Source of the DNA: an uncultured Bacteroidales bacterium
GTDB lineage: Bacteria > Bacteroidota > Bacteroidia > Bacteroidales > VadinHA17
Assembly (NCBI GenBank): GCA_963780735.1
Contig: CAWADB010000012.1
Coordinates: 69,354-133,353, forward strand
Reading direction: 5' to 3'
Length of the DNA stretch: 64,000 bases
This document shows positions 17,390 to 60,960 of this stretch, in pieces (the first letter of the stretch is position 1; each line of letters begins with the position of its first letter). The position numbers and the translations under genes were made by a program. Below the pieces are notes generated by a model. That model searched no databases. It saw nothing but the letters and a program-made list of their open reading frames with translations, and was not told the origin of the DNA.

Positions 17390-18124
17390 CTATCGTCCCT
17401 CAACATAGAGGAACTTCGTCCTTTTGACCAGGTACCTCACAACAGACCAGAAGATTAGGGCTGCGACAAGCAGTGTGATGTACAGCGGCTCCATATAAAC
17501 CTTTCCGGTCACTGCAATATTCCGTGTCACATCCAGAATGGCAAAGACGATGAAGAGATTTGCTATGCTGTTGTACTCCCTCTTGAGAACATTCCTTAAA
17601 GAGAATTGAAGGTCTGCCCTGGTAAAATTCCTGAAACGTGGAATCACGGACCTGACCCTGAAGGCCCATGTATCATAATCCTCACCGAATTTCCGGCGGA
17701 GATATTGCTCTTCTGCAAAAATAATCCGCTCATAATAGATCCAGAAGGCAAGCACAAATATGATAATGCACCAAACCGACCTGAGAAAGAGAACGGGGCC
17801 CAGCCACATCAGGAAGTTACCCACATAGAGCGGATGACGGACAATCGAATATATTCCCGAGGTATTCAGTTCATCAGCCATCTGGTCAATAACATTGCGG
17901 CCTGAGGTGTTTCTCGGCACATGACCGACAGTGTACGACCTGACCATCTCACCTGCAACCGAGACAATAACGCAGGTCAGTTCCCATGTCAGATTGAAGT
18001 AAATAACGCTTCTGTTGGCAATGAAGAGATAACCGGCAGCCAGAACCAGAACAATTACCGGTAACCAGCTTCTCCTTCTGAATAACCAGTTTCCGGATTT
18101 TTCCAGTTCATGAACGAGTGACAT
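17390..18124 (-). CDS. Integral-membrane methyltransferase (ICMT / phospholipid methyltransferase-like family)
   Basis: 244 aa polytopic protein with the core 'GIYSIVRHPLYVGNFLMWLG' typical of ICMT/PEMT-type enzymes. Confidence 0.6.
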   Translation of the reverse strand: MSLVHELEKSGNWLFRRRSWLPVIVLVLAAGYLFIANRSVIYFNLTWELTCVIVSVAGEMVRSYTVGHVPRNTSGRNVIDQMADELNTSGIYSIVRHPLYVGNFLMWLGPVLFLRSVWCIIIFVLAFWIYYERIIFAEEQYLRRKFGEDYDTWAFRVRSVIPRFRNFTRADLQFSLRNVLKREYNSIANLFIVFAILDVTRNIAVTGKVYMEPLYITLLVAALIFWSVVRYLVKRTKFLYVEGR

Positions 18125-18159
18125 AGTTTCAGGGTTAATGCCGTAAAAATAGGAAAATT

Positions 18160-19312
18160 TCAGAAACTATACTTAATCCTGACGAAACCCAGGTTTATCT
18201 TTGTCACTTCTCCCGATATGACATTGTCGAAATGCTGCATTACAAGTGAAAAATCAACATTCTCAGCCATTGAAAAATCAACAGTGGCATCTGCAAAATA
18301 ACCTTTCAGGTCAGGATACCAGATTGCAGACACTGAGATGTTAAGCAGCGGAACCGGGGTATAGGTAAGCTGCCCTATGGCGCTGAACTCCGACAGAGCC
18401 AGCTGGTCCGCAGTAATGGCTCCCTTGTAAAGCTCGGTGAAGTTGTCAAGTGCGAACGGGTTGTTTGAATACATCATCTGCACAAGTGCCGAAATCTTAT
18501 CTGTGAAGGTCTTATCGACGCCTGCCGTTGCGATGAAGGTCGTCTCTTTCACGGATGAATTTCCGAGCGGAGTGAACAGGGTGGCTTCGCCGCGGATTGA
18601 ATATGAGCCTAATGCACCTGACCATCCTGTACCCGCGGTGAAGAGCTCCTCATTTGTCTCGCCGGCAAAGAACTGGAGATCGGTATTAAGAACATTGAAG
18701 CGGTAAAGGGCAGCAACAGTTACCCTGTTGGCGCTGTCGAGCTTGACGACCATTTCGGCTGCCGATGACGGGCCGGTGGAGTAAACGGCTCTCAGGGCAT
18801 CGCTGCCGGGCCGTTCCATATAGTCAAAATCAAAAAAAGAATAAGTGTTGAAAATGTCATTGGGGTTCCATACCAGTGCCTGGCTCCAGTTGATCCGCTG
18901 CCGGCCCAGGGTGAGCCTGAGCTTCCCTGATGTGTAGTCGATCCAGGCCCTGTCGATGAACGTATTAAGCACGAAAGACTGCTCACTCAGGAGGTTCCAT
19001 GACATGTCAACCCAGCCCGGATCAGCAGCCAGGCCCGTGCTGTATGTCGGGGTCAAGCTGTACCATGTCGCCCAGCACAAACCTGTTTCTTATTTCAAGA
19101 GCCATTGTTATCCGGGTGCCGGGGTATGCCCTGAAATTAAGCCTGTTATGCAGCATGCTGCTGTTGAGCCATTCCTCTGCAGGGTCTTCAAATACGGAGT
19201 TATTGAGCCATGTTGCATAGCCTCCGGCAGAAAATCTGCCCGGGGCATCCTGTGACAGTGATGTGAAAGTGCAAATCATCACTGCAGAGAGCAACATGAT
19301 GGCTTTTTTCAT
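18160..19312 (-). pseudogene. Beta-barrel outer membrane protein, interrupted by a 1-nt frameshift
   Basis: The N-terminal piece (19022-19312) carries a signal peptide. The C-terminal piece (18160-19080) has 'RLTLGRQRINW' and ends '...VRIKYSF'. Removing one G from GGGG at 19049-19052 joins them as '...GDMVQLDPTYSTGLAADPGW...'. Confidence 0.65.
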
Positions 19313-20004
19313 GAAATATTGTTTGTCCTTTCATCGGAGACAACACGTCCGTCCTCTATCGTTATGACCCTTCGGGCCCTTTTCATCACCCGTATGTCAT
19401 GTGTCGAAAAGATGAATGTCATCTCCTCCTCACGGTTCAGCTTTTCCATTATATCGAGGAGGGTTTCGGCCGATCTGGAGTCGAGGTTTGCCGTCGGTTC
19501 ATCAGCCAGTATGAATTCCGGACGGGGCGCCAGGGCTCGTGCCACTGCCACCCTCTGCTGCTGTCCGCCCGACAGCTGCGAGGGTCTGCTGTTATGCCTG
19601 TCGGAGAGACCCACTGACTGAAGCAGCTCATCGGTGCGCGCCTTGCGCTTTTCCTTTGGCCACTTCTGGAGGTTCATTATAAATCCGATATTCTCTTCGG
19701 CGGTCAGCACGGGAATAAGGTTGTAGGACTGAAAGACGAAGCCGACATGCTCCATCCTGAAATCTATCAGTTCCGACGGTTTTAGCTCCGAGAGGCGGTG
19801 ACCTGCCACAATGATCTCGCCTCCTGTAGGCTGATCAAGGCCGCCGATGAGGTTCAGAAGCGTGGTCTTGCCTGATCCGGAAGGGCCAACCACAACTGCA
19901 AAATCACCTTTTTCAAAGCTGAGGGTGACACCGTTTATTGCCTTCACCTCAACTTCGGTATCATGATAGGTCTTATACACATCGTTTATTTCAACTACTT
20001 TCAT
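19309..20004 (-). CDS. ABC transporter ATP-binding protein (LolD/MacB-type)
   Basis: Walker A 'GPSGSGKTT', signature 'LSGGQQQRVAVARAL' and Walker B 'ILADEPT' are all present. Confidence 0.94.
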   Translation of the reverse strand: MKVVEINDVYKTYHDTEVEVKAINGVTLSFEKGDFAVVVGPSGSGKTTLLNLIGGLDQPTGGEIIVAGHRLSELKPSELIDFRMEHVGFVFQSYNLIPVLTAEENIGFIMNLQKWPKEKRKARTDELLQSVGLSDRHNSRPSQLSGGQQQRVAVARALAPRPEFILADEPTANLDSRSAETLLDIMEKLNREEEMTFIFSTHDIRVMKRARRVITIEDGRVVSDERTNNIS

Positions 20005-20020
20005 GACTGTGTCGATTTTA

Positions 20021-21464
20021 TTATTTTTCGCCTCTTAATGCTTCCACCGGGTTTAATTTCAATGCCTTGCGGGCCGGATAGACTGATGCAAGAATTCCTG
20101 TAAGAATAATCAGCACAGCGGTCGTTATAAAGAACTGTGTATCGATTGAAGGAAACAGGTGTGCGGAATAACCGAATGCCTCCATCCCCTCTGAGTATTT
20201 CACCAGGTTAATGCCCTTTCTTGCCGTCAGAGCTATAACCGCTTCCCCGATACCCATGCCTGCTATCCCGCCCACGAATGAAAGGAAAATTGATTCCAGC
20301 ATAATCATGGAGAACATTTTTCTCCGGTTCATGCCAATGGCGGCAAGCATCCCCAGTTCCCTCGTCCGTTCAAGCACGGCCATGAGCATTGTATTGACAA
20401 TTCCAAATGCCAGCGCTGCGAGAATTAGTCGCCATGAAAATGCCATAGATCTGCTGCATCATGTCTGCTATCATTGCAAGGTCAGGAGATATCTCCTTCC
20501 AGTTAAGAACTTCATAAGCGGGAAGTTTCATCCTTAACTCCCCGGTGGCTTTTTCAGTCAGATCATTGTCTTCGAGCCTGGCAATAAACCTGTGATAGAT
20601 TCCGTCAGGCATCCCGGTCAGTTTTCTCAGCTCATCCATAGGAACAAACAGTGAGGTAGCCTCGAACAGATCATTATTGGTCCTGAATATTCCGCATACG
20701 CGAAAGGCTGCACCGGTCTGCACATTGTTCATGTCAAGAAACGAAAGGATAATTTTAGATCCCTCCCGGTATGACCAGGCTGCCTCCTTTACCTGAAGGC
20801 TGTATTTCTTTATTTCCCGCGGAGAGAGAAGCCCGTCGATAGCCCTGCTGAATTTCTTGTCTGATGTGAAGCGCTGGTCCTTCAGTGGCACCAGCTTTGC
20901 CATGACTTCGGCAGGAACGCCCTTCTCTTCGAGTTGTTTCAGGGCATCGGCAGAGAGGATGTACCTGATGATGTTAAGGTCCTTTGCCAGCTTCTCTCCG
21001 ATAAACACCGGCTTGAATATACTGTTCCCCTGTGTTTCGGGCGCGAAGTAGCTCCCTGTGCCGGGTATGAGTTTTTCAGACAGGGTAAACATCTGTTTCT
21101 CCCTTTCTGTATCAACGCCCGTTATCTCCACCCCGGTGCTTTTTGCGGAAGTTGAAGCAACCCCGTGGACAATTATCCGCCCTGTGATTTCAGTGACACC
21201 GGCAGTACCTGTCAGCGCTGAGGCAATTCCTGCCGAATCCGTCATAAAATTCCGTATATCCCCGCTGCTTCGGAAGTCTTTGTTGTTGACCTGAATATGC
21301 GACAGCTCGTCATTGACAGCAGCATCAATCCGCTGAACAATTGAACTGTTGATAGCCGCCATTGTGAACACCCCGGCAAAGACACCGACTGCAACAGAGG
21401 CAATGACGGTCAGGCTTCTGGTTTTGTTTCGCCAGACATTTTTCCATGCAATTTCTGTTATCAT
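20021..21464 (-). pseudogene. FtsX/MacB-type ABC permease, interrupted by a frameshift
   Basis: ORF 20370-21464 holds TM1 and the periplasmic domain. ORF 20021-20446 holds the FtsX TM2-4 ('AFGIVNTMLMAVLERTRELGMLAAIGM'). They overlap in different frames. An A4 run at 20437-20440 sits in the overlap. Confidence 0.75.
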
Positions 21465-21475
21465 ATCATAAAAGC

Positions 21476-22891
21476 TTAAGCCCTGAGTGCTTCAATAACA
21501 TTTATTCTGAATATTTTACGGATGCTGAACGCTATGGCTATCAGAAGGATTATGAAGACCACTACCGTCTGCCAGAGATAATATGTGTCCGGCAGCATTG
21601 TAGGCATGACCGGATCAAATCCGTAATCCTCATACATGCGTCCGATCTGTCCGGTGAACCTCAGCGGGTGAAGATGACCGTAGATTACCACCGGCAGTGA
21701 GGCAACAATTCCGGCAGCCACCCCGAGGAATCCCACCAGGAGCATTTCAATCGAGATCACTTTTGCCAGTTTCCGTTTCTGCATGCCTATTGACACCAGC
21801 ATGCCGAATTCCCTTCTCCTTTCAGCAAGCATCATAAGCATTGTTCCGAATACTCCGAAGGCAATGACAAGGTAAAGTATCCCGATCATGATGGCACCGC
21901 TCTTATTGTCAGCCTCCATCTGGTTCACAAGAAGGGCGTTCAGCTGCTTCCAGTCCCTGACAACAAGAGGATCAGTGATCAGCCTGCCAAGTCTTTCGCC
22001 TGTGGCAAGGACCATTTTATCGCTGTTGTCCTTTACCCCGATGACGGCCGATGTTGCCATCCCCGGAGCGGCATACAGCTCCCGGGCGGCTTCAATGGTT
22101 ATGTAGACAATGATATTGTCGATATCCGGGGCAGGCAGTTTTACTATGCCGCTGACACGGTACTTGCCGGCTGCTGAGGCTCCGTGATAACCCTGACCTG
22201 TCAGAACCAATGTGTCGCCTACGCTTATTTTAAGATATTCTGACAATCCGGATCCTATGATGGCGCTTGTTGTTTCATCTGCAGTGAAGTAATGGTTCAC
22301 GGAAGATGCGTGTTTCCGTATCAGGGGCAGTACGGTTGCTGTGTCCGTATCACTGATTCCAAGGTCAAGCATCAGTCTTCCCGTGCTTGAGTAGGTTTCC
22401 CCGGTGTATAATTCAAGCATTGTCTTAATCCGGTCCGGAAGGGCTTCAGCTTTCAGGGCATCAACAGCAGCAGGACTGAGTCTGAATCTTACGAGCCTGT
22501 TCCGTAGGTCTGAAACCCTGTCCTCCCCTTCAGGGTCGATACCCATGACCATCACTCCCTGTGTGCGGCTCTCTGCTGCTGCCAGGGCAAAAGATTCAAG
22601 CCGCGGTACCACATCATTTACGTTCGGGTCACTCTTCAGGGTCTCACCAAGGGCATCATCATACTCAAAGCTGTTATCAAGAATGGCATCATCAAAATAA
22701 TCGCTGTGCTGAAGCTGCAGGTACCCGGAATATGCTTCAATAACATTTTTAAAGAGCCTGTCATATGCCCCGAGCTGGAAAGAACGCATGACAAGCGCAA
22801 AAAAGACAGCAAAAAACACAGATGCGGCAGTGATCAGTGTCCTCTTTTTATTGCGCCACAGATTTCTCCAGGCCAGCTGATAATCTTTCAT
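21476..22891 (-). CDS. FtsX/MacB-type ABC permease (intact paralogue)
   Basis: 471 aa. It begins 'AWRNLWRNKKRT', has a large periplasmic domain, and carries 'LAERRREFGMLVSIGM' in the FtsX domain. Confidence 0.87.
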   Translation of the reverse strand: MKDYQLAWRNLWRNKKRTLITAASVFFAVFFALVMRSFQLGAYDRLFKNVIEAYSGYLQLQHSDYFDDAILDNSFEYDDALGETLKSDPNVNDVVPRLESFALAAAESRTQGVMVMGIDPEGEDRVSDLRNRLVRFRLSPAAVDALKAEALPDRIKTMLELYTGETYSSTGRLMLDLGISDTDTATVLPLIRKHASSVNHYFTADETTSAIIGSGLSEYLKISVGDTLVLTGQGYHGASAAGKYRVSGIVKLPAPDIDNIIVYITIEAARELYAAPGMATSAVIGVKDNSDKMVLATGERLGRLITDPLVVRDWKQLNALLVNQMEADNKSGAIMIGILYLVIAFGVFGTMLMMLAERRREFGMLVSIGMQKRKLAKVISIEMLLVGFLGVAAGIVASLPVVIYGHLHPLRFTGQIGRMYEDYGFDPVMPTMLPDTYYLWQTVVVFIILLIAIAFSIRKIFRINVIEALRA

Positions 22892-22918
22892 ATGAACATT
22901 CCTTTCTGTTACCCGGAA

Positions 22919-23692
22919 TCACCTTATGGTTTTCATATTCTGCTGTGAAAAGAAGCTCTCATCAATGTCAATATTGAATTTCATCGCGTCAATGAGGAGA
23001 ATGGTTTTATGTCCTTCATTTTCTGCAGGTACAAGTTCGATGCGGGACGGAAGCACCCGCCCGTCAAAGCTTTTCAGCTCCATGCCGCGTTCAGTTCTGA
23101 CAAGGTACCCGTCTTCATCATACAACTCCGCCCTGAGTACAACAAACTCTTTTTTGTCAACCCACCACATCTGGTGACCCCATATTACCTCTGCGTCCGG
23201 CCTGGCAGTGAGTTTAATCCTGTAGCAGGCGCTGCCGTCAATATCTTCGTCACTCTCAAGTGTGTGGGTATAGTCATTTATTACCGATGACTCATTCAGA
23301 ATATCATCATTGGTGTAGTCGGAACCCATCCATCCCTGTGACATCATTGAGGGAGGCAGCTTGATGAGCCTGTTTATTGCAGGGTTCCAGCTCCACATCT
23401 CACTGCCTCGCTTGAGGAAGGTCTGACCCTTTTCACGGGCGGGAGCGGTAATCAGGGCCAGAGAGTAATCATCGCCAAGCGACCATGATTTGATCTCCAC
23501 CGTTCTTTGCCAGGTGGGACGAACGATGGTCATCGTCATAAGGCTGTAGCCTGATTTCTCCCCGTTGAACTTTTCATCTGCCTTTTTTATTATATCTGTC
23601 GCAGTGAGTTGCTGAGCACCTGCGGATTGGGATACAAACAGCAGCAATAAAGCCTGAAGCGACAGGATAAGCGGCCTTGTGATCTTTTTCAT
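22919..23692 (-). CDS. Outer-membrane lipoprotein-sorting (LolA-like) periplasmic protein
   Basis: 257 aa with a signal peptide. Its size and pattern ('TMTIVRPTWQRTVEIKSWS') match the LolA-like proteins found next to FtsX/ABC genes. This assignment is by recognition only. Confidence 0.6.
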   Translation of the reverse strand: MKKITRPLILSLQALLLLFVSQSAGAQQLTATDIIKKADEKFNGEKSGYSLMTMTIVRPTWQRTVEIKSWSLGDDYSLALITAPAREKGQTFLKRGSEMWSWNPAINRLIKLPPSMMSQGWMGSDYTNDDILNESSVINDYTHTLESDEDIDGSACYRIKLTARPDAEVIWGHQMWWVDKKEFVVLRAELYDEDGYLVRTERGMELKSFDGRVLPSRIELVPAENEGHKTILLIDAMKFNIDIDESFFSQQNMKTIR

Positions 23693-24495
23693 CAGAATCC
23701 CTTAAGCTTTTTAAGTAATTTCTCCCTGGCGGTTGTACCCTCCGATTGTCTCATGATCTCATAGAGCCAGTTACCGTACATGGGGTTCGGAAGGATGATA
23801 TACCGGGTTCCGAACAGCTCTTTGTCAGCTTCGACCGCGGCGAATCCAAGGTCGGGCCCTCTTTTCTCATAGGTGCCGCTGTGGTCGGCCAGGTTATCAC
23901 CGATAAGAAGCAGGATTTCATAATTCTTTTCAATAAGGGCCCTGCGGTCAATTTTTGATGAACTGCCCTGCTTAAGAAGGAGGTGGGTGGTGTCAGCATC
24001 GGGGAATCCGCAGGCCGCGAGATTGGAAATGGTGGGGTTCATCTCGGTGACCTTGCGGTTTGAGACATAAAACACCTCCACCCCCAGCGAGTCCGCATAG
24101 AGGGTGAATTCAACAGCTCCGGGAAGAGGTTCGGCCTGTGCCAGATTAACCCACCGGGTCCAGTCCTGATCAGTGAAAGGCTTGTTTTCCAGCACCTGCC
24201 AGGCCTGATACGGACTGTTGTCAAGCACCGTCTCATCTATGTCAAGCACTACGGCTGCGGGTCTGGTCTTATCAGCCCATGCCAGGTTTTCGGAGAGCGC
24301 ATTTTCAGCGTTCCGGAAACACTGGTAACAGAGTGCTTTCATTTCAGCTGACTGCTGGTACCACAGTGTAGCCAGTATAAGCTGATCCTGCGTCTCAGGA
24401 GACGATACTATCACTTCGGGCGGGGCTGTTCCCTTTCTTACAGGGCTGCAAGCCGCCAGCATTATCAGGCCGGTAACAATAATGAGCTTTTTCAT
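23692..24495 (-). CDS. Class C acid phosphatase / 5'-nucleotidase, lipoprotein e(P4) family (HAD)
   Basis: It has a lipoprotein signal 'LAAC' and the HAD motif I 'VVLDIDETVLDNSPY'. Its stop overlaps the LolA-like start (TGATG). Confidence 0.85.
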   Translation of the reverse strand: MKKLIIVTGLIMLAACSPVRKGTAPPEVIVSSPETQDQLILATLWYQQSAEMKALCYQCFRNAENALSENLAWADKTRPAAVVLDIDETVLDNSPYQAWQVLENKPFTDQDWTRWVNLAQAEPLPGAVEFTLYADSLGVEVFYVSNRKVTEMNPTISNLAACGFPDADTTHLLLKQGSSSKIDRRALIEKNYEILLLIGDNLADHSGTYEKRGPDLGFAAVEADKELFGTRYIILPNPMYGNWLYEIMRQSEGTTAREKLLKKLKGF

Positions 24496-24643: not shown

Positions 24644-26230
24644 ATGTCAACCTTAAAGCTGATGCTGGGGATGATCCCCTCAACTTCTAAACTGGAACTG
24701 GAAGAAAAGGCACTCATCGCTGAATATGAAAAGATGATCTCCTTTGCCGGTTCTGAAACGCTGGCAAAATACAACGTGCTCCATGAAAGCATTAATTCTG
24801 CCGGTTTCAGACAGAAGAAGAAAGAGCTGGAGTCGCTCACCTATAAGGGTTCTGAAGAATTTTCGAGAGAAACGGAATTTTTCAGCCTAAAGAAGGCAAA
24901 GGATATAGCTCTCTATTTCAAAACCGAAGGAAGTGCTCCGCTCAAGAACTTTACCACTCTGGACGGATCAGCCAAAATAAAAGAGATAGAAGACCTGGAA
25001 AGATTTGTCCAGTCGTCTGAGTTCAAGCAAAAAGAGAGACAAAAGCCAGTCACATTTAAGGATACCGAAGAGTACGGCAAATGGCTCGAATATAAGAAAC
25101 TGCTGAAAGACAAGGAGGTAAGAAAAAACCTTAACGCCGCCAAGGTCAAAATATTTGAGGAGCTGAAAATGTACGTGACATCGTCCGCTTTCCTGGTTAA
25201 GAAAAACATGAAACCTGTCACTTTCAAAGATACTCCCGAGTACCAGAAGCTGCTTGATTACAAGAGCAGGAAAAGCGCCGCTGACGTTGCTTCCTACTAC
25301 AAATTCAAGGCTTCAAAGGATTTAGGCAACTACGTACAGGTAAAGGATTCAGCCCGCCTTAAGAGATATTACGAGCTCGAGGCATACCTGAAGAGCAAGG
25401 CGTTCACGGAAAAGAAAGAGTATCTGCTTGACAAACACCGTTTCGAGAAAACAGATATGTTCAAGGAGCTGAATGAATACAACAGCCTTAAAAACACTGC
25501 CGACATCAAATGGTATTTCGCCGTTAAAGACTCAAACAAGTTTGATATTCTTAAAAATCGCTCGCTAACATTCGGTGATGAGTTTGACGGCAGCGAGCCT
25601 GATAAGAAGAAATGGCTCAACAAATATTACTGGGGTGACAAACTTCTGCACGACAGCTACAGTATTGCCACTGACCTTCACAGTTATACTCCCTCGGACA
25701 ATTTTGAAGTTCGCCACGGCGTCCTGCGCATAATCACGAAGCCGCAGAAGGTAACAGGCAAGGTCTGGGATCAGGAGAGAGGTTTTTACACAAAGGAATT
25801 CCCGTTCACATCCGGTATTCTCAACAGCGGAGCTTCCTTCAGGCAGAAATACGGTATTTTCTCCGCCAAGATCAAGCTGACCGACCCGGCAGTGCGCAAT
25901 GCCTTCTGGCTGATCGGGGACCGTATCACTCCTCATATCGATGTCTGCAGATCGGGCAGCGGAAAGGTATGGTTTGACCTGTTCACCGCTCCGGGAAATC
26001 ACTATAAAAAGAGCATCGGTTCAAGATACCTTTCTGATTTCTTCATCTATACCCTTGAATGGCGTCCTGAGAGCCTGGTATGGAAGATAAACGGCATTGA
26101 GGTGATGAAACAGACAAGCGGTGTGCCGCAGGAGGCGATGTACGTTAACCTGGCCGGCGGCGTTGACAAGCCCATCGGAGGCATTTCCTCGATGGAGATT
26201 GACTGGATAAGGGTATATCAGTTCAAATAA
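24644..26230 (+). CDS. Repeat protein with C-terminal GH16-like / concanavalin-A-like domain
   Basis: 528 aa with no signal peptide. There are about 4 degenerate 55-70 aa repeats (e.g. 'KPVTFKDTEEY' / 'KPVTFKDTPEY'). The C-terminus has 'AFWLIGD', 'YTLEWRPESLVWKINGIEV' and 'MEIDWIRVYQ'. Confidence 0.7.
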   Translation: MSTLKLMLGMIPSTSKLELEEKALIAEYEKMISFAGSETLAKYNVLHESINSAGFRQKKKELESLTYKGSEEFSRETEFFSLKKAKDIALYFKTEGSAPLKNFTTLDGSAKIKEIEDLERFVQSSEFKQKERQKPVTFKDTEEYGKWLEYKKLLKDKEVRKNLNAAKVKIFEELKMYVTSSAFLVKKNMKPVTFKDTPEYQKLLDYKSRKSAADVASYYKFKASKDLGNYVQVKDSARLKRYYELEAYLKSKAFTEKKEYLLDKHRFEKTDMFKELNEYNSLKNTADIKWYFAVKDSNKFDILKNRSLTFGDEFDGSEPDKKKWLNKYYWGDKLLHDSYSIATDLHSYTPSDNFEVRHGVLRIITKPQKVTGKVWDQERGFYTKEFPFTSGILNSGASFRQKYGIFSAKIKLTDPAVRNAFWLIGDRITPHIDVCRSGSGKVWFDLFTAPGNHYKKSIGSRYLSDFFIYTLEWRPESLVWKINGIEVMKQTSGVPQEAMYVNLAGGVDKPIGGISSMEIDWIRVYQFK

Positions 26231-26380: not shown

Positions 26381-26866
26381 ATGACAGTAAAAGAGTACAA
26401 TAATGCGGTAAGGGAATTTGGCGACCACGTCTACCGCTTTATATACCGAAGTATAAGGGACAGCCACAGGGCCGGAGATATTGTGCAGGACACCTACGAG
26501 AAACTGTGGCGCTGCGTCACGGAGACGGAGTATACGGTAGTTAAGGCATGGCTCTTCACCACGGCCTATAACAGAATGATTGATGTCATCCGTAAAGAAT
26601 CGAGGCTGGTGGATGTTGAGTTCTATGATGACTCCTCCCTTTATGCAGAAGAGAGCAGTACTGATCTGAATGAGGTGCTCCATCATGCGCTGGAAAGGTT
26701 GCCTGCTGTTCAGCGGTCAGTCATCCTCCTGCGTGATTACGAGGGCTACCACTACAATGAGATAGCTGAAATTACCGGGCTTACAGAGCACCAGGTAAAG
26801 ACGTATATCTTCAGGGGGCGGGTAGCATTGAAAAATTATCTTGTAAAAACATCAGTATGGCAATGA
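26381..26866 (+). CDS. ECF-type RNA polymerase sigma-70 factor
   Basis: 161 aa with region 2 'DIVQDTYEKLW' and the region 4 HTH 'YNEIAEITGLTEHQVKTYIFRGRVALK'. Confidence 0.9.
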   Translation: MTVKEYNNAVREFGDHVYRFIYRSIRDSHRAGDIVQDTYEKLWRCVTETEYTVVKAWLFTTAYNRMIDVIRKESRLVDVEFYDDSSLYAEESSTDLNEVLHHALERLPAVQRSVILLRDYEGYHYNEIAEITGLTEHQVKTYIFRGRVALKNYLVKTSVWQ

Positions 26867-27801
26867 ACGATGATACGGATTATCCGCGCCTGACACCGCC
26901 GGATGACAGGTATCCGTCGCCAGGCGACCTGTTCCGGTCTGCAGGTGATCTGACTGATGACCAGTTTGATCTCCTTGCTGCAGCATGGTCAGAGAACGCC
27001 TTGCCTGAAGACAGTCTTGCCGAAATGGAAGCATTGCTGGCGTCCGATCCCGCGAAAAAAGCTTATGCCGAAAGTTTCGGGCAGCTGCGGCTCAGACCTT
27101 TTGATGATAAGTGGAACGGCCGGCACGCTCTTTTACGGACAACACCAGCCGCCAAAATCATCAGGCGAGTGTGGATAACTACGCTGGCAGCAGCGGCAGT
27201 CATTTTTGCAATTCTGTTTCTCAGGCCGGTAACGGACAAACAGACTTCTTTAACAGCACCGGCCAGTTCTCCTGAAGTTGCCATGGCGCCTGAAGCCATC
27301 GAAACGGTTCCCGCGGCTGTAAAAGAAGTGATGCCGGAACCTGAGCTTTCCGTTAATAAAACATCCCTGGCAGCAGTAAAGATAACATCCGTAACAGCAG
27401 TAAAGGAAGAGCTTCCTGCAACGGAACGGGAACAGCCCGTTAAGACTGCACCCGTGACAGTGAGCGCCAGGGCTGCCAGGCCAGCAATCACTGCCGGAAT
27501 TGAATCCCGTGAACTCCTCGCAGTAAATTTCAGCAAGATCCCCGCAACGACGAATATCCCGGAAAAAGAAGAAAACTGGCTCATAAAAGGTATTGCCGGC
27601 CTCTCGAAAACAATCAAAAAGGAAAAAACACCTGTTGACGGATATGTCATTGCCAAATCGTGTATTAAAGGCATCAACAGTGTATTCGGTTCGGATATGG
27701 AACTTGAAAAAATCGTCAGTGCCGCGGGAGACACCGTCGCTGTCAGCTTTAACTCATCCCTGCTTTCATTTTCTGCACCCGTAAGAAAAAGTTCCCAATA
27801 A
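26857..27801 (+). CDS. Putative membrane anti-sigma factor
   Basis: It overlaps the sigma gene by 10 nt. A single TM segment ('VWITTLAAAAVIFAILFL') follows an acidic cytoplasmic N-terminus, and the exterior part is low-complexity and rich in A, P and T. Confidence 0.55.
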   Translation: MAMNDDTDYPRLTPPDDRYPSPGDLFRSAGDLTDDQFDLLAAAWSENALPEDSLAEMEALLASDPAKKAYAESFGQLRLRPFDDKWNGRHALLRTTPAAKIIRRVWITTLAAAAVIFAILFLRPVTDKQTSLTAPASSPEVAMAPEAIETVPAAVKEVMPEPELSVNKTSLAAVKITSVTAVKEELPATEREQPVKTAPVTVSARAARPAITAGIESRELLAVNFSKIPATTNIPEKEENWLIKGIAGLSKTIKKEKTPVDGYVIAKSCIKGINSVFGSDMELEKIVSAAGDTVAVSFNSSLLSFSAPVRKSSQ

Positions 27802-27858
27802 CTGTAACTTTGAAGCCGGTTAATTCGTCCTTGCAATAAACATAAATAACATTAAGCC

Positions 27859-28872
27859 ATGAAAAGAGTAGCAATAACACTGATTATTATTTTATCCTTC
27901 GTCCTGCCTTCAAAAGCCCAGGAAAAACAGGAAAAGCTTAAGGAACTTGAAGAGATGGAACAGAAAGCGGAGGTGACAGCCGCCGGTGACACTCTGATAA
28001 TTATTGAACAGGACACCCTGGCCGCTGAAGATGTAGAAATAATTATTGAAGATGAAGATGCCTATAAGGAGGAAGAGGATTATGATGATGACAAATCAAC
28101 CGTAACTGTCGGAGGTGTTACCGTTGAGGAGAGTGATGATGAGACTGTTATCAGAATCGGGAAGAAGGGCATCAGAATTTCTGAAGATGACAATGACACA
28201 TCAGTCACCTTTGAAGAGTATGATGATGATACAAAATCTTCATTCAGAGGTCATGTCGGAGGCTTTGAACTGGGGTTTTGCGGTTACTTCACAGAGCCAT
28301 TCAGCACCTCTCTGGAACCATCGGAAAACTACATGAACCTCAACACTGCGAAGTCAATGAATTTTAACTTCCTGCTGCCCAATATCAACCTGGGGTTCAG
28401 CCGCCACTTCGGGATAGCTGCTACAGTCGGCCTGAGCTGGAGTGACTACCATTTTGACGGTGATAACTCAATAGCCGAGGATGACAACGGAAATATAATG
28501 CCCGTGTATCCCCCCGAAGACGTCAGCTATGAAAAAACCAAGCTTTCAACAACTTATGCCACCATGCCGATACTTCTTGAAGGACAGATCCCTGTCTCAA
28601 ATCACGGTACAATAAATATCGGCGCAGGGTTTATAGGAGCAATCAAGCTGCACTCCCATACCAAGGTGGTCTATTATGACAACGACAAGATGAAGATAAA
28701 AAACAAGGATGATTTCAGTCTTAATCTCCTGAGATACGGAGTTACTGCACGACTCGGATATGAGATGTTCCAGGCTTACGGCACATACTATCTTTCAAAA
28801 ATGTTTGAAGAAGGGAAAGGTCCCGAGCTGTTCCCCTTCGAGGTCGGCATAGCCCTGACATTCAACAACTGA
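27859..28872 (+). CDS. Outer-membrane beta-barrel protein with a highly acidic N-terminal extension
   Basis: Signal peptide, then about 110 aa rich in D and E, then alternating beta-strand patterns ending '...FEVGIALTFNN'. Confidence 0.6.
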   Translation: MKRVAITLIIILSFVLPSKAQEKQEKLKELEEMEQKAEVTAAGDTLIIIEQDTLAAEDVEIIIEDEDAYKEEEDYDDDKSTVTVGGVTVEESDDETVIRIGKKGIRISEDDNDTSVTFEEYDDDTKSSFRGHVGGFELGFCGYFTEPFSTSLEPSENYMNLNTAKSMNFNFLLPNINLGFSRHFGIAATVGLSWSDYHFDGDNSIAEDDNGNIMPVYPPEDVSYEKTKLSTTYATMPILLEGQIPVSNHGTINIGAGFIGAIKLHSHTKVVYYDNDKMKIKNKDDFSLNLLRYGVTARLGYEMFQAYGTYYLSKMFEEGKGPELFPFEVGIALTFNN

Positions 28873-29736: not shown

Positions 29737-32346
29737 ATGAGATGGCTGAAAAAGATAGCGCTGATAACAGCAGGCCTGTTTTTACTGACCGTGACCGGCC
29801 TTGGCCTGTATGCATGGATCAGAAATGACAAGCTGACTGCCGCCCTCGTCCGCAAGGTTAATGAATCCGTCAATACCAAGATATCATACGGCACACTCAG
29901 GCTGACAATATTCGAGTCATTCCCGAATATAACCCTCAGGTTTAATGATCTCCTTGTAACGCCATCGCCATATTACGACAAGACGCAATTCAGGGGTGAG
30001 GATAACGATACGCTTCTTTCCGCTTCTTCCCTTTCCGTGACAGCATCCCTTCTCCAGATGCTTACAGGCACGGTGGCAGTGCGCTCAATAACGGTCAGGG
30101 AGGGGAAGATAAACCTGCTTACGGATAAGAGAGGGGACATAAACTACCAGGCTTTTAGTGGCGGAGATAAAAAGAAAAAAAACAAAAACGTAAGGCTTAA
30201 TAACATCAGCGCCCTGAACATGAAAACGGTCTGGTACGACAGGAGCTCCGGACTCAGGATATCAGGCAGGATAAATGAAGCCACCCTCGATGGGGATATT
30301 TTCAGGGCGGGGATCTTTCTGAACACGACTGTCAGCGTGGATCTTGACTCCGTTAATTTTGGCGATATGAGCATCTCCGGTTTCCCGGTGAATGCATCGG
30401 TCAAAATGCGCAAGACGGCCAACTCGCTGTCTGTGGCAAAAGGAACAATCGATCTGGCCGGCCTGAATTTCGGGGTTGACGGAATGGTAAACTATTCGAT
30501 GTCTACCCTTGATCTGGCTGTTGAGGGAAAGAAGATCAATATCGGATCACTTGTCTCTATGCTGCCTGCAAAATGGATATCCCATACCGGGGGTCTGAGT
30601 CCTTCCGGGATAATGGATTTCAGATGTACACTCAAGGGACCGTACGGAGAAGCCGGCAAGCCTCATATTGAACTTAATTATGCCCTTACTGACGGTCGGG
30701 TCAGTTCGCAGAGAAGCGGACTTAAAGTGAATAACCTCTCATTCAGCGGAGGGCTCACCAACGGGGCACTCAACAGTCCGGAGACCTTCCTCTTCACCGT
30801 TGACAATATGAACGCCACCTACGGTTCGGCAAAACTGAAAGGGTCTTTCAGGCTGAGCAGTCTGACCAAGCCGCACGTCACCCTGGCCCTTGACGGAGAT
30901 CTTAACTTCGATGATCTGCGCAAGATCATGAAAACAGACTATATCCGCGATCAGAAAGGATCAATCAGCGGTCACATAAAACTGTCGGGCCAGCTCCCTG
31001 ACAGCATGAAGCTTGATATGGCAGCGTTGCCCTCACTTCATCCGGATGCATCATTTGTGTTCAGCGATTTCGGAGCTACCATCGCTTCGTCGGGCATAGT
31101 CCTGACAGATGCAAACGGCTCGCTGATCATCAACAGGGATTTTATTGCCGACAGCCTCTCTTTCACGCTGATGGATCAGCATTTCCGGGTAAATGCAGTG
31201 ATGCGTAATTTTACAGGATGGGCATCCGGCGGACCCGAAATCATGGTTGTTACAGGAGATGTAGCAGCTGACAGATTTGTAACAGCCTCTTTCACCGGAA
31301 GTGAGAATGACAGTACGGCAGGTGCCGGCAAGCGGCTTAACATCTTTCCGGCAGACGTCAACATGAAAATCACTCTCACGGCTGACAGTATCATCAGCCA
31401 GGGATTCCGCGCAGCTAACTTCAGAACATCTCTTGCATATGAGCCCTTTATGTTCACTTTCAGTGACATCAGGGCTGAAGGACTTGACGGTCTGCTTACG
31501 GGCGAGTTCAGGCTGGGCAGGCAAAAAGACGGAGTGTATATCACCAGATCAAAGCTCGATGTGACCGGCATTGATATCAATAAGACATTCTCTTCATTCA
31601 ACAATTTCGGCCAGGATTTTATCGTGAGCGACAATCTCTTCGGGAACCTGACAGGCACAGTCACCGTGCTTGCCCCGCTCGACAGCAATTATAATATCAT
31701 CACAAAGGACCTTGTTTCAGATGCGCATCTGGTAATCACTGACGGCAGGCTTGTGCACTTTGCCCTGGCCGAGAGTCTCTCAACATATCTTGACCTCGAC
31801 GAGCTGAGGGATATCAGTTTTTCAAGAATGGAGAACGATGTCTTCATCACCAACCGCACGGTGTCAATACCAAAGATGCTGATCAACTCAACTGCAGTCA
31901 ACTTCACATTGTACGGGACTCACAACTTCGACGAGGATTACTCTTATCATGCAAGGCTGCTGCTGTCAGAGGTTCTGAGCAGGAAAGCAAGGGACCGCAA
32001 CCGCAGTGATGACGTTTTCGGTCAGGTGCAGGTCGACGGCGCCGGTAAAGCTACCATACCTCTGAAGATAGAATGTACCAACGGCATAGTAGATGTTGGC
32101 TATGACTTCGGGCAGGCGAAGGATAATATCAAAGAGGATATCGCGACTGAAAAACAGACACTGAAAGGGATACTGAACGAGGAGTATGGCTGGTATCAGG
32201 CAGATACGCTGAAAAAGAAGCCCGTCGAGAGCAAGCCAAAATTCAAAATAACATGGGAAGAGGGCAAGGAGCCTGCTGCACAGACAGAGGTAAAGCAGGA
32301 AGAAGTGACGGAAAGCCCTCTCCGGAAGTTGCTGAAAAAGAAATAG
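29737..32346 (+). CDS. AsmA-family outer-membrane biogenesis protein
   Basis: 869 aa. A single N-terminal TM anchor is followed by a long beta-rich periplasmic domain and a Lys-rich tail. The family call is by recognition. Confidence 0.7.
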   Translation: MRWLKKIALITAGLFLLTVTGLGLYAWIRNDKLTAALVRKVNESVNTKISYGTLRLTIFESFPNITLRFNDLLVTPSPYYDKTQFRGEDNDTLLSASSLSVTASLLQMLTGTVAVRSITVREGKINLLTDKRGDINYQAFSGGDKKKKNKNVRLNNISALNMKTVWYDRSSGLRISGRINEATLDGDIFRAGIFLNTTVSVDLDSVNFGDMSISGFPVNASVKMRKTANSLSVAKGTIDLAGLNFGVDGMVNYSMSTLDLAVEGKKINIGSLVSMLPAKWISHTGGLSPSGIMDFRCTLKGPYGEAGKPHIELNYALTDGRVSSQRSGLKVNNLSFSGGLTNGALNSPETFLFTVDNMNATYGSAKLKGSFRLSSLTKPHVTLALDGDLNFDDLRKIMKTDYIRDQKGSISGHIKLSGQLPDSMKLDMAALPSLHPDASFVFSDFGATIASSGIVLTDANGSLIINRDFIADSLSFTLMDQHFRVNAVMRNFTGWASGGPEIMVVTGDVAADRFVTASFTGSENDSTAGAGKRLNIFPADVNMKITLTADSIISQGFRAANFRTSLAYEPFMFTFSDIRAEGLDGLLTGEFRLGRQKDGVYITRSKLDVTGIDINKTFSSFNNFGQDFIVSDNLFGNLTGTVTVLAPLDSNYNIITKDLVSDAHLVITDGRLVHFALAESLSTYLDLDELRDISFSRMENDVFITNRTVSIPKMLINSTAVNFTLYGTHNFDEDYSYHARLLLSEVLSRKARDRNRSDDVFGQVQVDGAGKATIPLKIECTNGIVDVGYDFGQAKDNIKEDIATEKQTLKGILNEEYGWYQADTLKKKPVESKPKFKITWEEGKEPAAQTEVKQEEVTESPLRKLLKKK

Positions 32347-58889: not shown

Positions 58890-59498
58890 ATGTCGCTCAG
58901 GAATAAATCTATCCTGCTGATCCTGCTGCTGCTCGTTGCTGATCAGACCTTCAAGATTCTCATTAAAACAAATATGGTCATTGGAGAAGAGTACTCCGTG
59001 ATCGGGCACTGGTTCAGGATCCATTTCCTGGAGAACAACGGCATGGCGTTTGGCATGGAATGGGGCGGCAAGGCCGGCAAGGCGGCCCTGAGTATTTTCA
59101 GGATGGTTGCCATAGCTGGAATCTGCTGGTACCTTATCAGCATCATAAAAAAGAAGGCTCATCCCGGCCTGGTTCTTTCAGTAAGCGTTATTGTTGCAGG
59201 GGCAATAGGCAACCTGATCGACAGCGCTTTTTACGGAATGATATTCAGCGAGAGCTGGCACACGCCTGCGATAATGTTTCCCGAAGGCGGAGGATACTCG
59301 TCATTTCTGCACGGCCGCGTGGTTGATATGCTCTATTTCCCGCTGATCGACACCCACTGGCCCGCCTGGTCACCGATAAGGCCAAATGAAACGTTTGTCT
59401 TTTTCAGACCTGTTTTTAATATAGCCGATGCGTCAATAACCACCGGTGTACTCATCATTCTGTTCTTCCAGAAAAAATTCCTGGGCGAGACAAAGTGA
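58890..59498 (+). CDS. lspA: Lipoprotein signal peptidase II
   Basis: 'NNGMAFG', 'GAIGNLIDS' and 'FNIADASI' are present. I prefer the start MSLRNKS. Confidence 0.9.
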   Translation: MSLRNKSILLILLLLVADQTFKILIKTNMVIGEEYSVIGHWFRIHFLENNGMAFGMEWGGKAGKAALSIFRMVAIAGICWYLISIIKKKAHPGLVLSVSVIVAGAIGNLIDSAFYGMIFSESWHTPAIMFPEGGGYSSFLHGRVVDMLYFPLIDTHWPAWSPIRPNETFVFFRPVFNIADASITTGVLIILFFQKKFLGETK

Positions 59499-59547
59499 AC
59501 ATTATCGACATTTTGTCTTATTTTTGAGATCTCTACCCGCACCAGAG

Positions 59548-60523
59548 ATGTCAACTCTCTCAGATATTAAGAAGCCTGTCGCTGCCGAAATGCGCGAGTT
59601 TGAATCTTATTTCAACCACACACTGAAGAGTGATATCCCCTTTTTCCACACCATCCTGAACTATGTCATCCGCAGGAAGGGCAAGCAGATGCGGCCACTG
59701 CTCGTGTTCCTGGCTGCAAAGCTCAACGGTACCGTCAACGAAACCACTTATGTCGCTGCCACATTCATAGAGCTGCTGCACACGGCAACACTTGTTCATG
59801 ACGATGTTGTTGACGACGCATCCGAGAGGCGGGGCCTGCCTTCCATCAATGCGCTCTACAATTCAAAAATAGCCGTTCTGGTAGGCGATTACCTGCTTGC
59901 GCAGGGACTGCTGATAAGCGTTGAGAAGAACAAGTTCAATATGCTCGGAATCGTCTCGGCAGCCGTTAAGGAAATAGTGAAGGGTGAGCTCGTGCAGCTT
60001 CAAAAGACGCGAAAACTGGATATCAGGGAAAAGGATTATTTCAGGATCATTTCAATGAAAACGGCGACCCTGATCTCAGCATGCACTGCCTGTGGTGCCA
60101 GCTCGGTCACTGATGACCAGGAGACAATTGCCCGGATGAAGTTGTTTGGTGAAAATATCGGCATAGCCTTCCAGATAAAGGATGATCTCCTCGACTATTC
60201 CGGCAACAGTCTTACCGGGAAGAGAGAGGGCAATGATATTAAGGAAAAGAAGATCACCCTGCCGCTCATTCATGCCCTTCGTGAAGCAGGGCCCGTTGAA
60301 CGGAGAAGGATCATCAGGATAATAAGAAAAAAGAAGAAGGGAAGGAAGGAGATTGAAAAGGTAATCGGGTTTGTAAAGGACCACAAAGGCCTGGAATATG
60401 CAGAATCAAAAATGAAGGAGTATTCCGACATGGCTATCCGGCAGCTCGATGCGTATCCTAGAATCAGAAACCAAATCGGCACTTATAGAATTTGTAATCT
60501 TTTCAACACTAAGAAAAACATGA
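59548..60523 (+). pseudogene. ispB: Long-chain polyprenyl (octaprenyl-type) diphosphate synthase with a +1 frameshift 63 nt before its stop
   Basis: 'LVHDDVVDD' and 'QIKDDLLDY' are present. After 'LDAYP' at about 60460, the family-typical C-terminus 'ESETKSALIEFVIFSTLRKT*' continues in the +1 frame and ends at TGA 60521-60523. Confidence 0.75.
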
Positions 60524-60960
60524 AAAGCGTTTCTCGTTTCCTGTCATTGGGCAAGTATGCCGTGGCAGGTGTTTCAAGGGACCCGAAGAAGTTCGGGCAG
60601 GTTGTGTTCAGGGAACTCCGTCAGAAGGGGATGGATGTTGTTCCCATAAATCCGAATGCGGACGTCATTGACGGAGTAAAATGCTTCAGTTCCGTCAGCG
60701 ATCTTCCGTCTGATGTCAGAGGCTTAATTCTTATGACTCCAAAAGGAGAGACTCTTACAGTCGCCAGGGAAGCAATCGCCCACGGAATAAAAGACCTGTG
60801 GGTCCAGCAAGGGGCAGAAACCAGGTCAACGATTGACGAACTGAAAAAGGAAGATATCAACCTGATCTCCAAAGAATGCATCATGATGTTCTGGAAACCG
60901 AACAGCGTCCATTCCTTTCACCGTTTTCTGAAGAAAATCTTCGGGGGACTGCCCGCTTAG
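60520..60960 (+). CDS. CoA-binding domain protein (YccU/YneT-like)
   Basis: 'YAVAGVSRDPKKFG', 'VVPINPN' and 'LWVQQGAE' are present. Its ATG forms an ATGA overlap with the out-of-frame ispB stop. Confidence 0.75.
   Translation: MKSVSRFLSLGKYAVAGVSRDPKKFGQVVFRELRQKGMDVVPINPNADVIDGVKCFSSVSDLPSDVRGLILMTPKGETLTVAREAIAHGIKDLWVQQGAETRSTIDELKKEDINLISKECIMMFWKPNSVHSFHRFLKKIFGGLPA

Follow-up and report, generated by a model that had tools for sequence, protein, structure and literature searches.

Gene content of the cluster

The window considered here is a stretch of 64,000 nucleotides from the genome of an uncultured Bacteroidales bacterium (contig CAWADB010000012.1), and the subject of this analysis is a cluster of seven genes on its minus strand (17390-24495) that combines an ATP-binding cassette (ABC) transporter with a LolA-fold carrier and an outer-membrane beta-barrel. 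Identities were assigned by profile searches, with matches read against Pfam gathering scores and the equivalog cut-offs of NCBIfam (TIGR). The first gene (23692..24495) encodes an e(P4)-family class C acid phosphatase/5′-nucleotidase lipoprotein (TIGR01533). It is followed by the gene for the LolA-fold carrier (22919..23692; Pfam family PF17131, LolA_like/TP_0789-like), which in this window is the first gene of what is described below as the module. Next are two FtsX-type permeases of the type VII ABC, Lol-like kind: permease 1 (21476..22891; FtsX and MacB_PCD) has 471 amino acids, and permease 2 (20021..21464; FtsX) is split here and has 480 once repaired. An ABC ATPase of the LolD/MacB/DevA group (19309..20004; ABC_tran) is encoded as a separate polypeptide, and is followed by a barrel (18160..19312) of 383 amino acids once repaired, modelled as an 18-stranded outer-membrane protein and weakly matching DUF1302 as a short relative. 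The last gene (17390..18124) encodes an LmtA-like membrane methyltransferase of the ICMT/PEMT family (PEMT, ICMT and TIGR04571 matches).

All seven open reading frames (ORFs) are co-directional, and the intergenic distances range from -4 to 35 nt, so that the operon-like packing is real. The stop codon of the phosphatase gene overlaps the start of the carrier gene as TGATG, as checked in the sequence, the stop of the ATPase gene overlaps the ATG of the barrel gene as ATGA, and a 35-nt spacer separates the barrel from the methyltransferase. Judged from the sequence, the tight spacing and the ATGA and TGATG overlaps would be compatible with co-translation. The initial annotation had described these seven genes, their overlaps, and their spacing in the same way, and every identity that it gave is borne out by the profile searches; it overlooked that two of the genes, those for permease 2 and the barrel, are broken.

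A conserved five-gene module

To place the cluster in a wider context, the window's proteins were mapped by tblastn onto 80 species loci (labelled L001 and so on), and the fractions given below refer to loci with enough flanking sequence. Genes for the LolA_like carrier and the ATPase adjoin the barrel gene in 56 of 57 loci, over a range of barrel identities from 83% down to 37% that includes metagenome-assembled genomes (MAGs) of Chlorobiota. The order carrier-permease-permease(-permease)-ATPase-barrel is conserved, flanking genes vary among distant loci, and an unbiased clustering of flanking ORFs turned up neither biosynthetic genes nor any further co-directional neighbour that recurs. A TetR gene lies directly upstream of the module in 38 of the 52 loci, and has been lost in the window, L001, L005, and L006. 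The real unit is thus a self-contained module of five genes, or six with the usual TetR repressor. The core of the initial annotation, which joined an inner-membrane ABC engine, a LolA-fold protein, and an outer-membrane barrel, is upheld by this linkage; its seven-gene unit shrinks to five genes plus a TetR regulator that it did not mention and that this window has lost.

Locus L073 (7730-11167) is the only one in which the module does not precede the barrel; a histidine kinase and an OmpR-type response regulator are found upstream, and the contig ends 267 nt past the barrel.

The ABC engine

The two permeases are paralogues with 23% identity to one another. Permease 1 matches the FtsX domain (E 5e-14) and MacB_PCD (27.7 bits), and permease 2 matches FtsX (E 9.7e-21). 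Among solved structures LolF is nearest to the two permeases (E 3e-13 for permease 1). The ATPase is a protein of 231 amino acids that is unfused to a permease and matches ABC_tran with an E-value of 2.4e-34. With its separate ATPase and two FtsX-type paralogues that have a large periplasmic domain, the complex has a LolCDE-like architecture. Against the lolCE equivalog (TIGR02212, cut-off 362.45), however, permease 1 reaches 77.7 bits and the two fragments of permease 2 reach 30.3 and 55 bits. The ATPase scores 225.2 bits against LolD (TIGR02211, cut-off 307.75), with near-equal scores for the MacB nucleotide-binding domain (216 bits) and DevA (213 bits), and FtsE is almost as good. Because the LolCE and LolD cut-offs are missed by far (30-78 bits against 362 for the permeases, and 225 against 308 for the ATPase), identification with the housekeeping Lol system is rejected. 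The automated labels 'lipoprotein release' and 'lipoprotein-sorting', which the module's proteins carry in the source annotation, receive no support from these scores and need correcting.

Neither an HlyD-family gene nor a TolC/OEP gene was found by Pfam matches in the window from 12.6 to 34.8 kb, or in the syntenic locus L001. The absence of a membrane-fusion protein, which had been proposed at the outset, therefore holds for about 10 kb around the cluster.

Two variations of the engine were seen in distant loci. There are three FtsX permease genes instead of two in L054, L059, L065, L068, and L084 (~5.3-9.2 kb per locus), and in most of the distant versions of the module the permeases are shorter, with about 405 amino acids compared with 471-480 here.

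The LolA-fold carrier and the outer-membrane barrel

No other protein of the module is as well conserved as the carrier, which has about 257 amino acids and contains the invariant motif PPSMMSQGWMGSDYTNDD. It matches PF17131 with 180.5 bits (cut-off 30; E 3.2e-53) over the whole model, positions 1-184 of 184, and not the LolA family PF03548; the earlier call of a LolA-like protein thus withstands the profile hidden Markov model test. Its relatives by sequence in the PDB are 3buu (E 9e-20), 4z48, 9tp6, and 3bk5, which are annotated as LolA superfamily. This soluble periplasmic protein has a type I signal peptide and lacks a lipobox. There is also a weak match to DUF1329 (PF07044) of 16.7 bits, below the cut-off of 23.1. 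A search of the literature found no functional work on PF17131.

The barrel protein has a signal peptide and ends in ...KYSF. An AlphaFold2 (AF2) model shows about 18 strands (predicted local distance difference test, pLDDT, 93.6; predicted template modelling score, pTM, 0.86), and its top Foldseek matches in the PDB are the Campylobacter jejuni MOMP, ChiP, OccAB/OccD/OccK, and AlgE, with template modelling (TM) scores of about 0.6 and at most 13% identity. Barrels of the FadL, LptD, or Omp85 type are rejected, as the top fold matches are the 18-stranded Occ, AlgE, and MOMP proteins. DUF1302 itself has been described as an 18-stranded barrel with the same Occ and AlgE fold matches (PMC13499233), and the model has these features of the DUF1302 fold, namely 18 strands with Occ/OprD and AlgE as the nearest solved structures. 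Sub-threshold DUF1302 matches occur in 23 of 66 relatives of the barrel (best E 6.8e-5); two relatives have a precomputed PF06980 match, and one relative is named DUF1302 by NCBI. The most conserved stretch of the barrel is the loop GRQRINW...WNPNDIFN...FDFDYxERPGSDA at residues 136-171, and the recurrent sub-threshold matches cover the same region. The invariant residues are mostly charged (R57, R121, R137, R139, D152, D163, D171, and E242). The barrel is thus confidently modelled as an OprD/AlgE-like fold and is placed at the edge of Pfam DUF1302, a link that was missed when the cargo and mechanism of the system were initially said to be defined by no nameable family, a statement that is thus only partly true.

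More than 5,000 homologues of the repaired barrel exist, all unnamed or hypothetical and none with a Pfam domain. Clustered at 50% identity, the matches of an exhaustive search form about 1,400 groups, of which 400 have E <1e-30. The barrel is encoded in at least 594 GTDB species genomes, nearly all from uncultured Bacteroidales or other Bacteroidota, with a few from Chlorobiota.

Relationship to known transport systems

The module shares features with four groups of systems and is identical to none of them. Closest to its outer-membrane part are the proteobacterial clusters of DUF1302, DUF1329, BNR, and HAE3-type resistance-nodulation-division (RND) genes, such as AmeABCD of Castellaniella defragrans, Sama_1588-1591, and PP_0765/0766. 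Both combine an 18-stranded barrel and a LolA-superfamily protein with an energised inner-membrane transporter, both lack a classical adaptor and TolC, and weak recurrent sequence links join the module's barrel to PF06980 and its carrier to PF07044. DUF1302 has been predicted with AlphaFold-Multimer to bind the LolA-superfamily protein DUF1329 (interface predicted template modelling score, ipTM, 0.84; PMC13499233), and in several Proteobacteria a BNR protein and an RND pump show cofitness with both (bioRxiv 10.1101/072470). Deletion of AmeABCD in Castellaniella lowers monoterpene tolerance and raises the accumulation of Nile Red (PMC6394551), and genes of the DUF1302/DUF1329 cluster of Pseudomonas putida matter on Tween 20 and fatty esters (bioRxiv 10.1101/2020.07.04.188060). 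The differences lie in the engine, which is a Lol-type ABC transporter in the module and an RND pump in these clusters, and in the absence of an RND or BNR/Ycf48-like gene from the module locus. Moreover, the module's barrel has about 385 amino acids and is sub-threshold for Pfam, whereas theirs has about 540-600; its carrier belongs to PF17131 (~257 amino acids) and theirs to DUF1329 (~450 amino acids); its regulator is TetR and theirs LuxR; and its hosts are Bacteroidota and Chlorobiota rather than Proteobacteria.

With the LolCDE-LolA-LolB pathway the module has in common two paralogous FtsX permeases, a separate ATPase, a soluble LolA-fold periplasmic protein, and LolF as the closest solved permease. 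It departs from that pathway in missing all the equivalog cut-offs widely, in having a carrier of PF17131 rather than LolA, and in usually being under TetR control. Its outer-membrane partner is an integral 18-stranded barrel, whereas that of the Lol pathway is the lipoprotein LolB, and no LolB-like lipoprotein is encoded in the cluster. The type VII exporters MacAB-TolC and DevBCA-HgdD resemble the module in the FtsX/MacB-type permease fold with a periplasmic core domain, in an ATPase close to the MacB nucleotide-binding domain and DevA, and in the predicted export from the periplasmic side. Unlike these exporters, the module has no gene for an HlyD-family adaptor or TolC/OEP, its ATPase is unfused, and it uses two different permeases instead of a homodimer.

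The remaining system is BBJ23-BBJ29 of Borrelia, for which a computational study described a LolA-like protein and an Omp85 barrel encoded together with a MacB-like ABC transporter, and read them as an apparatus that spends ATP to bring a non-polar ligand to the outer membrane (PMC13078400). This was the only paper found in the literature that combines a LolA-like protein, a MacB-like ABC transporter, and an outer-membrane barrel in one cluster. The Borrelia system differs in that its barrel is of the Omp85 family, its permease forms a homodimer, it includes additional genes for chaperones, and it is confined to Borrelia plasmids. No characterised orthologue of the module was found in the literature.

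A proposed export route

In its composition the module combines a Lol-like ABC engine with an outer-membrane pair of the DUF1302/DUF1329 type, and it is widespread and uncharacterised. The function that we consider somewhat likely is inducible, ABC-driven efflux of a membrane-partitioning toxicant or a lipid-like (hydrophobic or amphiphilic) compound, as opposed to housekeeping sorting of lipoproteins. Inducible efflux is favoured over a housekeeping role in envelope biogenesis because of the usual TetR control, the self-contained nature of the module, the varying flanks, and the absence of conserved biosynthetic neighbours. We infer a direction of transport, an order of hand-over, a docking of carrier and barrel, and a class of cargo, as follows. 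The heterodimeric permease pair and the ATPase would use ATP to pull a molecule of hydrophobic or amphiphilic character out of the inner membrane at its outer face. The molecule would then be handed to the soluble LolA-fold carrier, which would dock on the 18-stranded DUF1302-like barrel and release it into or across the outer membrane. Carrier and barrel would together do the work that falls to the adaptor and TolC in MacAB-type pumps and to LolB in the Lol pathway, and the module would be an ABC-driven counterpart to RND-driven DUF1302/DUF1329 clusters such as AmeABCD.

More tentatively, it is possible that Bacteroidota and Chlorobiota carry an undescribed trans-envelope exporter in which a Lol-type ABC extractor passes its substrate to a LolA-fold shuttle and then to a dedicated 18-stranded DUF1302-like barrel, and that, in the course of evolution, the carrier-barrel pair has joined up with an ABC engine in some systems and an RND engine in others. 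How hydrophobic molecules other than lipoproteins and lipopolysaccharide cross the periplasm and outer membrane is poorly understood, especially in Bacteroidota. If true, the proposal would define a general shuttle-and-barrel route for such molecules across the outer membrane, distinct from TolC-type ducts and from LolB-type insertion, and would suggest that the carrier-barrel pair is an exchangeable outer-membrane unit that different inner-membrane engines can use. The module joins two unexplained families, the PF17131 'LolA_like' proteins and the DUF1302-type barrels, and with its occurrence in at least 594 species genomes it is a compact and testable candidate.

Several observations weigh against efflux along this route. 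The TetR gene is missing from 14 of the 52 loci, the window included, and the hosts of the module are uncultured MAGs. The barrel's own match to DUF1302 (PF06980) is 18.5 bits with an E-value of 1e-3, under the cut-off of 23.2. Its charged invariant residues suit a polar channel, or a plug held by salt bridges, no less well than a hydrophobic conduit, and call for caution in assuming a purely hydrophobic cargo. The functions of DUF1302 and DUF1329 are themselves disputed, with export of envelope components, esterase activity, and efflux all put forward (bioRxiv 10.1101/072470; 10.1101/2020.07.04.188060). Finally, the module would be dead in this genome if the frameshifts in two of its genes were genuine.

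Frameshifts in permease 2 and the barrel

Permease 2 is broken into ORFs 21464-20370 and 20446-20021, and the barrel into ORFs 19312-19022 and 19080-18160. Alignment to a 95%-identical relative (L085, GCA_049282055.1) reveals one extra base at each site, at window position 20430 in permease 2 and 19048 in the barrel, and the insertion in permease 2 is also evident from alignment to L006. Removal of the single bases restores an intact permease 2 of 480 amino acids and an intact barrel of 383; intact homologues of 383 amino acids share 96% identity with the repaired barrel along its entire length, and the permease 2 of relatives is uninterrupted at 475-480 amino acids. No other frameshift was found in the 64-kb window, where the overlapping ORF pairs on the same strand proved on checking to be distinct genes.

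One reading of these breaks is that the module is here a decaying pseudogene cluster, in which both frameshifts and the loss of TetR are genuine and nothing functions. That the only two frameshifts detectable in the window both fall in the module, at a locus from which TetR has gone, speaks for this reading. It is nevertheless unlikely, as both insertions are single bases in the identical plus-strand context GT[C]G, and apart from that one base neither frame is damaged, with intact relatives matching at 95-96% identity. Assemblies that fall in the same 90%-identity protein clusters, and are probably of the same species, have an intact barrel, and in one of them a different gene of the module, permease 1, is split instead. 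Split genes are also scattered over related long-read MAG contigs (the sigma factor of L001, the GH16 gene and permease 2 of L002, and permease 2 of L004). Because of the intact barrel in same-cluster assemblies, the scattered splits in related long-read contigs, and the lack of any other frameshift in the window, the two insertions are judged to be probably errors of consensus or assembly and not signs of decay. The shared GT[C]G context, with neither insertion present in the 95%-identical relative, has the look of a systematic consensus error, perhaps related to a motif or to methylation in long-read data.

The flanking phosphatase, methyltransferase, and sigma factor

The two enzymes at the ends of the cluster had been taken as parts of the system that might modify its cargo. 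The phosphatase is well identified, with 272.5 bits against the equivalog cut-off of 216.05 of TIGR01533 (e(P4)), and its N-terminus, MKKLIIVTGLIMLAAC, contains a lipobox (LAAC). It is found within 10 kb of the module in only 7 of 52 loci, at a distance of up to 3.8 kb (L007 and L014) and often with TetR in between, and only in the window, L001, L006, and L013 does it adjoin the module directly; it is absent from L005, where the barrel is 83% identical. The phosphatase is therefore rejected as a component of the module on the grounds of synteny, the test by which the initial annotation had proposed to judge it, and is an inherited neighbour instead.

The methyltransferase has Pfam matches to PEMT and ICMT, and aligns over its positions 1-244 with positions 1-252 of the 252 in TIGR04571 (LmtA_Leptospira), with 248.8 bits and an E-value of 6.7e-74 against a cut-off of 325. 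It is far nearer to Leptospira LmtA, a lipid A 1-phosphate O-methyltransferase, than to generic ICMT (46.9 bits). On this alignment the enzyme is classed as a relative of LmtA and not as a demonstrated equivalog, and the match is a hint of possible methylation of a lipid phosphate in some Bacteroidales. The gene follows that of the barrel in 41 of 47 loci with at least 45% barrel identity, where it is co-directional and begins 35-50 nt past the barrel, and in 1 of 28 loci below 45%. The neighbourhood that had been proposed for it is thus confirmed in one clade and not elsewhere, and that clade also largely keeps other flanking genes (a Zn-peptidase and a GH16-like gene). The methyltransferase is a clade-specific neighbour whose membership of the transporter is unproven.

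Upstream of the cluster on the plus strand is a divergent trio (26381..28872) of an extracytoplasmic function (ECF) sigma factor, an anti-sigma factor, and an OMP_b-brl_2 protein, all identified by Pfam. Of the closer loci, 17 of 33 have this trio upstream of the module, as do 6 of 16 distant loci, in which it is directly beside TetR. In the window the GH16-like gene and the phosphatase stand between trio and module. The ECF trio is a recurrent and ancient neighbour, and may be a regulatory partner of the transporter. Two distant loci, L075, which keeps the phosphatase, and L076, which keeps the methyltransferase, both retain the divergent ECF sigma factor of the window's type (49% identity to the window's in L075). 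Because the sigma factor has been kept there too, these adjacencies are best explained by descent, and independent recruitment of the two enzymes in distant lineages is rejected.

These data bear on a fuller version of the proposal, in which all seven genes act together: the methyltransferase, and perhaps the phosphatase, would modify a phosphorylated lipid cargo, for example by LmtA-like methylation of a lipid phosphate, and the ABC transporter, carrier, and barrel would deliver it to the outer membrane. Such a reading gains from the full-length LmtA match at 248.8 bits, from the close co-directional spacing in the 41 clade loci, from a methyltransferase adjacency that outlasts that of the next flanking gene (the Zn-peptidase, 24 of 38 loci), from the presence of the methyltransferase in L076, and from the overlap of the phosphatase stop with the carrier start in the window. 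Yet the methyltransferase is missing beside 27 of 28 distant and 6 of 47 close modules, the phosphatase is missing from 45 of 52 loci and is a bona fide e(P4) 5′-nucleotidase equivalog with a known role of its own, the LmtA score is under the family cut-off, and the sigma factor retained in L075 and L076 makes those adjacencies look inherited and not recruited. An integrated seven-gene pathway is accordingly improbable, and a role for the flanking enzymes in cargo modification is not established, with the phosphatase near 7 of 52 modules and the methyltransferase adjacent in one clade only.

A possible specialised lipoprotein pathway

Another alternative is a second, specialised Lol pathway, in which a subset of lipoproteins, such as surface-exposed ones, would be extracted by the ABC transporter, chaperoned by the PF17131 protein, and inserted or flipped at the outer membrane by the barrel in place of LolB. 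LolF as the best solved relative of the permease, lolCE and LolD as the top NCBIfam families, the 'lipoprotein release' and 'lipoprotein-sorting' labels of the source annotation, the similar proposal made for Borrelia BBJ23-29 with its Omp85 barrel (PMC13078400), and the extra LolA and LolB paralogues encoded by Bacteroidota (PMC11885536) all point in this direction. It is improbable, given that the LolCE and LolD cut-offs are missed by far, that the carrier lies outside the LolA family, that an OprD/AlgE-like 18-stranded barrel is no known fold of a lipoprotein insertase, that TetR control and a patchy spread in uncultured Bacteroidales and Chlorobiota are ill-suited to an essential sorting route, and that Bacteroidota already have LolA and LolB (PMC11885536). 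Inducible efflux of a hydrophobic or amphiphilic compound is the function preferred here.

Other genes of the window

Three further plus-strand genes of the window deserve mention. The GH16-like gene (24644-26230) encodes a protein of 528 amino acids whose N-terminal half consists of K/E-rich repeats (motif KPVTFKDT.EY) and whose GH16 domain, at the C-terminal end, is weak; the gene is kept beside the module in the closer clade. A protein of 869 amino acids (29737-32346) has a weak match to DUF748, at 28.9 bits against a cut-off of 50; DUF748 groups with the AsmA-like proteins, which have been implicated in lipid transport to the outer membrane. Polyprenyl synthetase and CoA_binding_2 domains are usually encoded by separate genes, but an ORF of 504 amino acids (59446-60960) contains both, either as a fusion or through the loss of a stop codon.

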